In this document: positions 44,550 to 46,135 of the stretch, one piece after another
Layout: each line of letters opens with the position of its first letter
Numbering within the stretch: the stretch's first letter is position 1
Assembly (NCBI GenBank): GCA_016699465.1
Contig: CP064977.1
Span: 619,739-683,738 of the forward strand
DNA from: Candidatus Campbellbacteria bacterium
GTDB lineage: Bacteria; Patescibacteriota; Minisyncoccia; Phycocordibacterales; EsbW-18
DNA length: 64,000 nt
Direction of reading: 5' to 3'
The notes under the pieces: generated by a model
Seen by the model: the letters and a program-made list of their open reading frames with translations, nothing else
Told to the model about the DNA's origin: nothing
Database searches by the model: none
Translations under genes and position numbers: made by a program

Positions 44550-46135
44550 TATATGTAGAGTTTGATCCTAGCTCAGGATGAACGCTGGCGGCGTGGATAA
44601 GGCATGCAAGTCAAGGGGGCCCGCAAGGGCAACCGGCAAACGGGGTAGTAACAGGTGGGAACGTACCTAGAAGTCAGGAATAACCTGTCGAAAGACAGGC
44701 TAATACCTGATAGTCTCCAAGGAGTAAAGCTCCGGCGCTTCTAGAACGGCCCGCCCGCTATCAGCTAGTTGGTAAGGTAATGGCTTACCAAGGCGTAGAC
44801 GGCTAGGGGAGGTGAGAGCCTGACCCCCACCACTGGGACTGCGACACTGCCCAGACACCTACGGGTGGCTGCAGTCGAGAATCTTCCGCAATGCACGAAA
44901 GTGTGACGGAGCGACGCCGCGTGATTGATGAAGCTCTTCGGAGTGTAAAGATCTTTTATGAGGGAAGAAGTTTATTGACGGTACCTCATGAATAAGGGGC
45001 TGCTAACCTCGTGCCAGCAGCAGCGGTAATACGAGGGCCCCGAGCGTTATCCGGAATTATTGGGCGTAAAGGGTGTGTAGGTGGTTGTATTAGTCTTGTG
45101 TTAAAGCCTGTTGCCTAACAACAGAATCGCACGGGAAACGGTACAACTAGGAGGGTGCAAGGGGTGTACGGAACTCATGGTGTAGGGGTGAAATCCGTTG
45201 ATATCATGGGGAACGCCAAAAGCGAAGGCAGTACACTGGTGCATACCTGACACTGAAACACGAAAGCGTGGGTAGCGAATGGGATTAGATACCCCAGTAG
45301 TCCACGCCCTAAACGATGACAACTAGCTTTTCGGAGTATCGACCCTCTGAGAGGCGAAGCTAACGCGTTAAGTTGTCCGCCTGGGTAGTACGACCGCAAG
45401 GTTAAAACTCAAAGGAATAGACGGGGGCTCGCACAAGCGGTGGATCATGTGGTTTAATTCGACGCTAAACGAAGAACCTCACCGAGGCTAGACATCCAGA
45501 CGAATCTTAGAGGAAACTTTAAGAGCCTTCGGGCGGCTGGACAGGTGATGCATGGCTGTCGTCAGTTCGTGGCTTGAGCTGTTCCCTTAAGTGGGGTAAC
45601 GAACGCAACCCCTATTGTCTGTTATACGTGTCAGACAAGACTGCCCAGCACCAAGTTCGCAAGAACTTGTAAGCACAAAGTACAAAGCACAAATCTCAAA
45701 AAAGTTTTAAGATTTTTAATTTTATAATTCTTTTGGATTTTGAACTTTGAATTTTGGATTTACAAACTTGTTAGTTTGGTGCTGGGAGGAAGGTGGGGAT
45801 GACGCCAAGTCAGCATGTCCCTCTGATGCCTCGGGCTACACACGTGATACAATGGGTGGTACAACGGGTCGCGCGGCGGTAACGCCAAGCCAATCCTAAT
45901 AAAGCCATCCTCAGTTCGGATTGAGGTCTGCAACTCGACCTCATGAAGTTGGAATCGCTAGTAATCGTGGGTCAGAATACCACGGTGAATACGTTCTCGA
46001 GCCTTGTACTCACCGCCCGCCAAGTCAAAGGAGTCGGGAGTACCCGAAGTTCCCATTTATTGGGGCCGAAGGTAAGTTCGATGACTAGGGTTAAGGCGTA
46101 ACAAGGCACGGCTAGCGGAAGCTGGTCGTGGATTT
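44550..46135 (+). rRNA. rrs: 16S ribosomal RNA (contains ~120-nt insertion in helix 40; 3' end lacks CCUCC)
   Basis: 5' agagtttgatcctagctcaggatgaacgctggcggcg; 530 loop gtgccagcagcagcggtaatac; ggaggaaggtggggatgacg; 3' helix 45 with GGAA loop then ggattt. No 23S within 18 kb downstream. Confidence 0.9.
45655..45776 (+). repeat. family-A repeat inserted in the helix-40 hairpin loop of 16S rRNA
   Basis: Between cccagcaccaa and ttggtgctggg the sequence aagcacaaagtacaaagcacaaatctcaaaaaa...ttttggattttgaactttgaattttggattt is the same repeat as in the ribosomal-operon spacers. Confidence 0.8.

Follow-up and report, generated by a model that had tools for sequence, protein, structure and literature searches.

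Rickettsia palindromic elements (RPEs) are known for in-frame insertion within coding genes. The Correia elements of Neisseria and the pneumococcal RUP elements are MITEs (miniature inverted-repeat transposable elements) of the IS630/Tc1 type, which duplicate a TA target, occupy transcribed intergenic sites and form long RNA hairpins. Classical intervening sequences (IVSs) of ribosomal RNA lie mainly in helices 25 and 45 of 23S rRNA and in helix 6 of 16S rRNA. RPEs occur in coding genes and also in the transfer-messenger RNA (tmRNA) gene (PMC1458961), and the repetitive hairpin elements (RHEs) of sponge mitochondria are found in intergenic regions and, at length-variable sites, in rnl and rns, with families that differ by lineage (PMC2800124). 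Work cited in PMC10946416 describes MITE families in both genic and intergenic rDNA of Nosema bombycis, where the rDNA is still functional. In the Candidate Phyla Radiation (CPR), 48% of 16S genes carry insertions, including short ones (<200 bp) of unknown nature, and genomes usually hold one rRNA gene copy (PMC11270868). Here we describe a dispersed hairpin repeat in a 64-kb stretch of DNA (hereafter the window) of a Candidatus Campbellbacteria genome (Parcubacteria, CPR), where it fills spacers of the S10-spc ribosomal-protein operon, adjoins the tmRNA gene and is found at the helix-40 tip of 16S rRNA. In the literature that we searched, four points appear to be new: that an insertion at a 16S helix tip belongs with a family dispersed in mRNA spacers of the same genome, the heptad architecture with its conserved mismatches, the compensated changes that run through all units, and the finding that helix 40 is generally a hot spot of expansion in Parcubacteria.

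One repeat family in mRNA spacers, the tmRNA leader and 16S rRNA

A single repeat family has eight copies in the window (Table 1). Six of these occupy S10-spc spacers, a seventh lies in the gap from smpB to the tmRNA gene, and the eighth is within the 16S gene. A covariance model, R1, built from a MAFFT alignment of the eight copies in register, recovers these loci on their preferred strands with E-values of 1e-16 to 7e-10 and finds no further copies in the 64 kb (E <= 1, filters off). For every copy, one orientation outscores the other by 30-50 bits; seven are in sense and the smpB-ssrA copy is reversed. An earlier note on this DNA had listed copies in the rplN-rplX, rplX-rplE, rpsN-rpsH and rpsH-rplF spacers and an inverted copy at 30985-31060. 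All of these proved real by blastn or R1, but the list had missed the rplV-rpsC and rpsE-rplO copies.

The 16S insert matches the rplN-rplX copy at 75% identity over 93 nt (64 bits, blastn), the rpsN-rpsH copy at 73% over 103 nt, the rplX-rplE copy at 70% over 102 nt and the inverted smpB-tmRNA copy at 77% over 78 nt, and identities between the 16S repeat and the spacer copies range from 69 to 77%. This likeness goes beyond A/T bias, which the earlier note had allowed for: 300 dinucleotide-preserving shuffles of the insert gave 27.1 +/- 2.2 bits with a maximum of 36.8, and the longest exact matches, of 24 nt (45670-45693 = 3582-3605) and 19 nt (45738-45756 = 5103-5121), compare with at most 14 nt in shuffles. 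Rfam searches of the spacers and the tmRNA leader, at gathering and E-value thresholds, returned only spurious matches to microRNA-precursor-like hairpins, so the repeat belongs to no known RNA family.

The copies are about 80-100 nt long with 22-34% G+C. In the spacers they start at the upstream stop codon or within 10 nt of it and end 3-14 nt before the next ATG, and some reach into the genes themselves. The left arm of the rplX-rplE copy supplies the final codons and stop of rplX; that of the rpsE-rplO copy lies within the 3' end of rpsE, where it encodes a Lys-rich tail (...KHETRSTKHEAN); and additional left-arm heptads of the rplV-rpsC copy, from about 1508 within the rplV 3' end, give a Lys-rich tail on translation. 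The smpB-tmRNA copy follows smpB (30514-30963) and stops 6 nt before the mature 5' end of the tmRNA (gene at 31066-31470, RF00023).

The window makes up about 8% of an 811-kb genome, and the S10-spc operon, from rpsS to secY, occupies its first 9 kb. By Rfam it also holds a full-length bacterial 16S gene, the tmRNA gene and three tRNAs, with no 23S gene found in the 64 kb and none after 16S. Its L5 is 96% identical to the L5 of GCA_024653945.1. The operon was compared with that of L202 (SecY 93%, L5 96% identical), L203 (L5 83%), L209 (SecY 98%), L213 (from Logan, SecY 92%) and L211 (GCA_964631485.1, SecY 90%), and genes are named by the Pfam labels of orthologous genes in relatives. For 16S, a signature scan of species-representative genomes gave 120 Patescibacteria loci, with helix 40 measurable in 109. 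A scan of JGI metagenomes with L5 returned distant relatives only (<=66% identity) and served for generality, not for insertion boundaries.

Table 1. Repeat copies and 16S features in the window (R1, covariance model of the repeat; h40, helix 40 of 16S rRNA).
Feature	Position	Strand	Evidence or remark
rplV-rpsC copy	1539..1619	+	R1 62.5 bits
rplN-rplX copy, fills spacer	3577..3673	+	R1 82.3 bits
rplX-rplE copy, fills spacer	3889..3986	+	R1 84 bits; 85% identical to rplN-rplX copy over 93 nt
rpsN-rpsH copy, fills spacer	5051..5138	+	R1 96.4 bits; closest paralogue of 16S copy
rpsH-rplF copy, fills spacer	5534..5625	+	R1 79.5 bits
rpsE-rplO copy, CGAAR/YUUCG subfamily	7284..7370	+	R1 85.7 bits
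Solo right arm, CGAAR subfamily	9731..9779	+	Upstream of adk; 86% identical to L082 h40 right arm
Solo right-arm-like segment, CGAAR subfamily	17328..17391	+	Inside T/G-rich low-complexity spacer
smpB-tmRNA copy	30981..31060	-	R1 85.5 bits minus, 48.8 bits plus
Pre-16S stem, 5' strand	44497..44524	+	Pairs with 46272-46299; inverted repeat, 93% complementary
16S rRNA gene	44550..46143	+	RF00177, 1368.5 bits, full length
Whole expanded h40	45644..45786	+	cmscan alignment; RNAfold
Lineage-wide h40 extension, 5' half	45650..45669	+	Local hairpin CAAGUUC-GCAA-GAACUUG possible
Repeat copy at h40 apex, CAAAG/CUUUG subfamily	45670..45762	+	R1 75.2 bits, E = 2e-12
Lineage-wide h40 extension, 3' half	45763..45780	+	Local hairpin CAAACU-UGUU-AGUUUG possible

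A hairpin of 7-nt units

The arms of the element are made of 7-nt units, of the (G)CACAAAG type on the left and the CUUUGAA type on the right, and every copy folds to one long hairpin of 4-5-bp helices at 7-nt spacing. Across the aligned copies the 22 modelled pairs are 94.9% paired. Compensated double changes occur in seven pairs, a number reached by none of 500 shuffles, and sliding the 3' partners by 1-3 columns lowers the pairing to 60% or less. The mismatches between the helices are themselves conserved, with C.A in 8/8 copies and A.R (A.G or A.A) in 8/8, and only 18 of the 80 inter-helix cells are able to pair; these mismatches are not random decay. In the rpsE-rplO copy, G-C replaces A-U in all four helices (CAAAG/CUUUG to CGAAR/YUUCG). 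In sense, the mRNA copies fold weakly, at -8 to -13 kcal/mol (z of -1.3 to -2.0). Fold strength by strand gives a mixed signal: the mRNA copies fold less strongly in sense than in antisense, and the 16S and tmRNA-leader copies do the reverse.

A run of tandem heptads that is G/A-rich and forms no hairpin (TAGAGAT TAGAGAC TAGATAC TGAAGAT TAGAAAA) lies at 6167-6206 in the rplF-rplR spacer, where L209 has an unrelated 120-nt sequence; 7-nt repeats thus arise in spacers even without a complementary arm. Short-period repeats of many sequences, mostly heptads and some of them hairpin-less, are found in spacers of the clade, for example (CAAATGA)n in L202 and the (TAGAGAT)n of the window, and all units of a copy change together, as they do under slippage homogenisation. 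Both points would suit independent growth of heptads in place by replication slippage in an A/T-rich, repair-poor genome, with the likeness between copies a convergence, but we consider this origin very improbable. The copies have in common the asymmetry of their left and right units (GCACAAA against GTTCAAA) and their mismatch types, and neighbours are alike in loop sequence; near-identical arms stand at non-orthologous sites, namely helix 40 of the 16S relative L082 and an mRNA spacer of L202; and neither exact matches of 24 and 45 nt nor a score of 64 bits against 27 +/- 2 for shuffles fits convergence. For the most part, these shared derived features already refute slippage.

The copy in helix 40 and its fate in the rRNA

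In the cmscan alignment of helix 40, ACUGCCCAGC and CUGGGAGG stand on either side of 132 inserted nt, where the consensus loop has 4 nt (model positions about 1157-1160, E. coli about 1165). The 132-nt insertion sits in the apical loop of helix 40, as the earlier note had proposed, and is enclosed by the native stem, in which CCCAGC (45644-45649) pairs with GCUGGG (45781-45786). RNAfold of 45649-45780 gives a single long hairpin (-35.9 kcal/mol, z = -5.0). The repeat proper is the central 93 nt of the insertion, and the approximately 40 nt around it are an extension common to many Parcubacteria. The earlier note had drawn the repeat as 45655-45776; its core stands, whereas 45650-45669 and 45763-45780 belong to the lineage-wide extension. 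The alternative that it had named, that the extra sequence is native lineage-wide helix-40 sequence, accordingly holds for the flanks and fails for the core. Alignment and folds agree with its view of one family that is found in both mRNA spacers and 16S and that extends the helix-40 hairpin.

An intron was considered for the insert and rejected: it is 132 nt long, has no open reading frame (ORF) and has no Rfam intron match. No group I or group II intron was matched in the window 16S by an Rfam scan that does detect introns in L014 and L093.

A second possibility for the helix-40 copy is that the hairpins are cleavage sites for an RNase III-type enzyme, as in IVSs. The copy or the whole extension would then be cut out, leaving 16S fragments of about 1.1 kb and 0.36 kb, and the spacer copies would cut the polycistronic ribosomal-protein mRNA into cistrons or stabilise its ends, which is compatible with mobility. 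Here the apical loop of a peripheral helix is replaced by a long extended stem, as in the known 23S and 16S IVSs, and the short, ORF-less, non-intron rRNA insertions of CPR may be IVS-like (PMC11270868). The 16S gene is bracketed by a 28-nt stem, paired at 26 of 28 positions, of the classical kind that serves pre-16S maturation; processing of the RNase III type is thus probably used. With the helix-40 extension included, the base of the structure has 14 continuous pairs. The predictions of Brown et al. (2015), as relayed in PMC9297842, were drawn from comparing genes with transcripts and take most CPR rRNA insertions to be introns that are removed from transcripts; they favour excision and weigh against a retained insert. 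However, the helices inside the element do not exceed about 5-7 bp, with mismatches conserved in all copies, in contrast to the nearly continuous pairing of the 16S flanking stem; the mRNA copies fold weakly in sense; close relatives have no spacer hairpins at all; and Pfam finds no RNase III gene among the 40 window ORFs, the window being only 8% of the genome. Taken as a whole, we rate cleavage as rather unlikely. Because no uninterrupted helix is longer than about 7 bp, which would make a poor RNase III substrate, the modelled structure makes it slightly more likely that the helix-40 copy is kept as an expansion segment than that it is cut out. The rRNA gene is probably single-copy, so the gene that carries the insert must itself work.

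Helix 40 as an expansion hot spot

Among the 109 Patescibacteria loci, the shortest helix 40 is a tetraloop hairpin and the longest exceeds 180 nt (43 loci have <=25 nt, 34 have 26-80 nt and 32 have >80 nt), and with this spread helix 40 is a hot spot of expansion in general and not a one-off target. The extension of about 30 nt is composed of a 5' and a 3' local hairpin, the sequence of which differs by locus yet stays self-complementary, and the basal module with compensating changes is also present in L082, L065, L053, L093, L014, L083, L029 and others. Periodic arms are significant in 13 of the 32 long extensions. Of 20 such arms, 18 have a period of 7, and the unit sequences are lineage-specific.

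By 16S, the nearest sampled relatives are L082, at 95.3% identity across the 761 nt compared, and L003, L053 and L065 (about 92% each). Helix 40 is long and fully readable in L082, L053 and L065, and the L003 contig ends within the extension. The sequence of the window's basal module is kept in L082 and L003, and only its architecture in L065 and L053. The apical hairpins of L082, L053 and L065 are all unlike that of the window. L082 has an apex of the CGAAA subfamily. The right arm of this apex matches the rpsE-rplO spacer of the window at 91.5% identity, and the apex has a 45-nt exact match to the rplX-rplE spacer of L202. The helix-40 copy itself thus appears to take part in the turnover of the repeats. 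Unrelated Parcubacteria have comparable pairs, of other sequence, within their own loci: the helix-40 insert of L093 is 77% identical over 102 nt to a copy in the 16S leader and 73% over 94 nt to an insert at the helix-6 tip, that of L084 matches inserts in the helix-33 region and at the helix-44 tip, and weaker matches are seen in L070, L115 and L014. No 16S gene adjoins RecG in L206, and no spc operon of the L082 genome was identified among the SecY or L5 clusters.

It is extremely improbable that mis-assembly of a metagenome-assembled genome put the repeat into 16S. Such an artefact could be suspected in view of the Logan contig L001 (SRR11674038), which ends inside repeats at both ends, and of the L003 16S and the 16S-bearing contig of L202, which end in or near the gene (about 270 nt into 16S in L202). 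But the insert is flanked by perfectly complementary strands of helix 40 and by the conserved extension module, independent assemblies (L082/L207, L065, L053 and about 30 others) have inserts at the same position, and the RecG of the window is 100% identical to RecG on the 811-kb NCBI contig. The repeats do break assemblies of CPR 16S genes and ribosomal-protein operons, since short-read contigs (L001, L003, L205) end inside repeats or expanded 16S.

More distant Parcubacteria (L144, L160, L178, L182, L189 and perhaps L186) have another element in spc spacers, with an outer stem and an inner hairpin with a G+C-rich base. The base of the inner hairpin in L178 and L189 (CCCAGCCCC...GGGGCUGGG) resembles that of 16S helix 40. 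L144, L182 and L189 have the 3' tail ...ATTTTTATAATCGYTTCACTCMTTAAAAATC, L160 and L178 have another common tail, and L186 has a similar CCCAGC-based hairpin with neither tail. This element may be a conserved structured RNA or another cassette related to helix 40.

Turnover in the operon spacers

Presence/absence of copies and swaps of subfamily are directly visible between relatives. L213 and L211 have compact operons with spacers of -7 to 54 nt and no R1 matches. In both, the rplN-rplX site (6-8 nt) and the rplX-rplE site (2 nt) are empty and rpsN and rpsH overlap as ATGGTAA, and the rpsH-rplF spacer of L213 is 15 nt. These empty sites are 2-15 nt of plain sequence or overlapping stop and start codons without any hairpin, and for that reason the earlier suggestion of hairpin-directed insertion is unsupported. 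S5 in relatives that do not have the element ends without the repeat-encoded tail.

In L202, a 20-kb locus holds eight copies, mainly of the CGAAR subfamily, with two subfamilies coexisting. They share the rplN-rplX, rplX-rplE and rpsH-rplF junctions with the copies of the window, and further ones lie at rplD-rplW, rplW-rplB and rpsC-rplP, the last a junction with only a 12-nt spacer in the window; no hairpin is present at rpsN-rpsH of L202. Paralogues inside L202 are 88-96% identical, and the orthologous pairs at the three common junctions of window and L202 are 73-84% identical. Two copies are conserved between the two genomes, namely the partly coding rpsE-rplO copy (92%), the right-arm (spacer) part of which is the same except for one base directly before the rplO start codon, and the smpB-ssrA copy (88%), which also has an orthologue in L205. 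L203 has a CCAAG/CUUGG variant at rplN-rplX. In L209, the hairpin at rpsN-rpsH is equally long but unrelated, with AGCTTC/GAAGCT heptads; rpsH-rplF holds a CCAAG-type hairpin, and rpsE-rplO a CA-rich leader that replaces the right arm. From these comparisons, copies appear to be gained, lost and replaced between close relatives, and those within one genome seem to tend to evolve in concert.

TA..TA flanks are found at five of the eight window copies and at all four L202 copies examined, where TA also lengthens the stem, i.e. the palindrome. The ATGGTAA overlap seems to be duplicated at rpsN-rpsH; the remaining filled and empty pairs are not simple insertions.

The same distribution bears on the idea of an rRNA mimic, in which a ribosomal protein, or one associated with the ribosome, would bind expanded helix 40 and its look-alikes in the S10-spc and tmRNA-leader transcripts and so, by autogenous control, couple expression to ribosome assembly. 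All eight copies lie in transcripts of the translation apparatus, the helix-40 copy and most spacer copies of the window genome are of the same subfamily, and the architecture (5-bp helices, conserved mismatches, period of 7) stays constant while the helix sequence co-varies. Spacer hairpins in other Parcubacteria even have a stem like the helix-40 base, CCCAGCCCC...GGGGCUGGG. A regulator site would be expected at a fixed position, however, whereas the operon position of the copies differs by genome; relatives at 90-92% SecY identity have no operon hairpins, the hairpin family at rpsN-rpsH of the 98% relative is unrelated, and two subfamilies are together in L202. We regard such mimicry as improbable.

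What kind of element

We think that the element is probably a dispersed, non-autonomous hairpin repeat that stands atop an older, lineage-specific extension of helix 40 and that behaves like RPEs, mitochondrial RHEs and MITEs. It would be selfish or neutral in nature and would persist only where a self-contained, outward-pointing hairpin is harmless, which in the window would mean the stop-start junctions of S10-spc, the tmRNA leader and the tip of a peripheral rRNA helix. Candidate processes of change are transposition in trans, gene conversion among copies, or allelic exchange by recombination. The 16S copy would lengthen helix 40 by about 45 irregular base pairs, and variation in helix-40 length across the lineage, as expected for an expansion segment, is seen.

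As to class, the family has many similar dispersed copies (eight in 64 kb and eight in the 20-kb L202 locus), and their presence or absence at orthologous sites differs (filled in the window and empty in L213/L211; rpsC-rplP filled in L202 only). There are no clear discrete terminal inverted repeats, the entire element being one imperfect palindrome. The earlier note had called the repeat mobile and MITE-like. Copies do come and go between close relatives, as a mobile or exchangeable element should, but the TA..TA duplication is ambiguous and membership among MITEs fails on a parent insertion sequence (IS) in the window, so that "MITE-like" would apply by analogy only. A repetitive extragenic palindromic (REP) element mobilised by RAYT was rejected, as the copies are 80-100 nt long with 22-34% G+C and no GTAG/CGTC head, and no RAYT or Y1 transposase was found by Pfam among the 40 window ORFs. 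REP elements are G+C-rich palindromes of 20-40 nt with a GTAG or CGTC head and are linked to a RAYT gene (PMC3733652).

Several points, in addition to the predicted removal of most CPR rRNA insertions, weigh against a mobile, neutral repeat. Pfam scans found no transposase or parent IS among the 40 window ORFs, and there is no clean target-site duplication, the filled and empty sites differing by more than a simple insertion. All eight copies are in translation-apparatus transcripts and none is in other intergenic regions of the window, which neutral random insertion would not predict. The strict 7-nt architecture across differing subfamilies suggests a structural constraint, possibly a function or a specific partner, and the swaps of whole spacers between strains with 98% SecY identity could be ordinary homologous recombination of alleles. 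The translation-only distribution, the 7-nt period and the weak sense folds would keep alive a functional reading of the hairpins, as a processing site or a protein-binding mimic.

A bolder proposal, possible though doubtful, is that Parcubacteria hold distinct, structure-constrained cassettes of 7-nt period that serve as raw material for 16S expansion segments and move back and forth between rRNA and stop-start junctions in ribosomal-protein operons, their unit arrays being copied and homogenised by a dedicated mechanism. The helix tips used would be that of helix 40 and, in relatives, those of helix 6, the helix-33 region and helix 44. The variable base pair of each unit differs by genome: the window has A-U, L202 and L082 have G-C, and L203 and L209 have C-G. 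A dedicated array-copying mechanism would explain why the same compensated pair recurs in every unit of a copy. If true, these cassettes would be a living example of rRNA growth via helix insertion.

Other features of the window

The 3' end of 16S (46128-46143) reads GGAUUUAGUCAAAU, and the CCUCC anti-Shine-Dalgarno is therefore absent; its loss has been reported in about half of Parcubacteria (PMC9297842). The ribosomal-protein genes (1-9000) have no upstream GGAGG, and their start contexts are ...ATCATTTATG or ...TATATG. A second dispersed family is formed by C/A-rich, hairpin-less leaders (...CAAATAGCAAATAACCAAACTAAAACTAAYCACYAAC...CCAAC...TTTATG) directly upstream of start codons, at 6558-6650 and 11376-11446, as reverse complement at 17255-17310, 28502-28563 and 29193-29232, and as the pair 15279-15384 and 30218-30331. 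In L202 and L209 such leaders stand at numerous ribosomal-protein junctions that have none in the window; they could serve translation that does not depend on a Shine-Dalgarno sequence.

The rplE-rpsN spacer (about 4555-4780) has a terminator-like G+C hairpin, then a promoter-like TTGCAC...TAGTATA and then a non-coding stretch of about 150 nt (GAGCTTGTCCTCTTAGAGCCAATAGGCACCGGAGGAGACC...GGTCCATGGACACATCGAGAGGCAGC). This stretch is near-identical in L202, L211 and L213, beyond the conservation of the adjoining genes, and has no Rfam match; it is a candidate structured rpsN leader or small RNA. Between rplE and rpsN, L202 has an additional 282-aa ORF (10725-11573 of L202) with no Pfam match, which is not in the window. 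The secY-adk interval (9111-9797, about 690 nt) holds no convincing plus-strand ORF, two terminator-like hairpins and the solo CGAAR right arm, for which no left-arm partner is present; the corresponding interval holds a 174-aa minus-strand ORF in L209 and two small ORFs in L202.

The tRNA-Ile(TAT) gene (37580-37654) is flanked by partial duplicates of both its halves, 92-97% identical (37500-37537 / 37579-37616 and 37619-37657 / 37760-37798), which may have been left over from a duplication of the tRNA in tandem or from an integration site. The large ORFs at 11447-14212 and 56740-58773 have weak signatures of TraG/VirD4/TrwB-type coupling proteins and HerA (DUF87). ATPases like those of type IV secretion or DNA translocation are common in CPR genomes.

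Implications and comparison with known systems

The origin of rRNA expansion segments is usually inferred from comparing finished ribosomes. Here the donor repeats, the acceptor site (the helix-40 tip) and the intermediates are visible in genomes only a few percent apart, with relatives that have no extension, an extension of about 30 nt, or long extensions with different cassettes, so that the origin of expansion segments becomes open to experiment. This may be a live case of rRNA helix lengthening by a dispersed repeat. The repeats also lengthen 16S amplicons and add C-terminal tails to ribosomal proteins, and their 7-nt architecture and translation-only distribution could point to a novel RNA-protein interaction or copying mechanism.

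Like IVSs and the short CPR insertions, the 16S copy replaces the tip of a peripheral helix by an extended stem and has no ORF and no intron signature; unlike here, the CPR papers that we consulted do not mention a link between an rRNA insertion and repeats dispersed in mRNA spacers of the same genome. The Nosema case is eukaryotic and concerns multi-copy rDNA, whereas the rRNA gene here is probably single-copy. The family resembles the Correia and RUP elements in size range, multiple copies, presence/absence polymorphism, transcribed intergenic location, long RNA hairpins and TA flanks. It differs from them in having no discrete terminal inverted repeats that match a known IS and no transposase found in the window, and in that the TA is perhaps part of the palindrome.

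The sponge mitochondrial elements are likewise short hairpin repeats in intergenic regions and rRNA genes, with different families per lineage. They are organellar and have stems of 8-18 bp, whereas the repeats here form periodic rods of about 90 nt in a free bacterial genome and only in translation-related transcripts. The likeness is one of behaviour, and with unrelated host lineages no sequence homology would be expected. The same applies to RPEs, which resemble the family here in being palindromic, about 100 nt long and non-autonomous and in their dispersal through a small genome, although we know of no report of RPEs with 7-nt units and conserved mismatches. As RPEs do, the family here reaches genes: two copies (rplV and rpsE) add Lys-rich tails to proteins, one lies in 16S and one adjoins ssrA. 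It differs from RPEs in its targets, which are stop-start junctions and the tips of rRNA helices.

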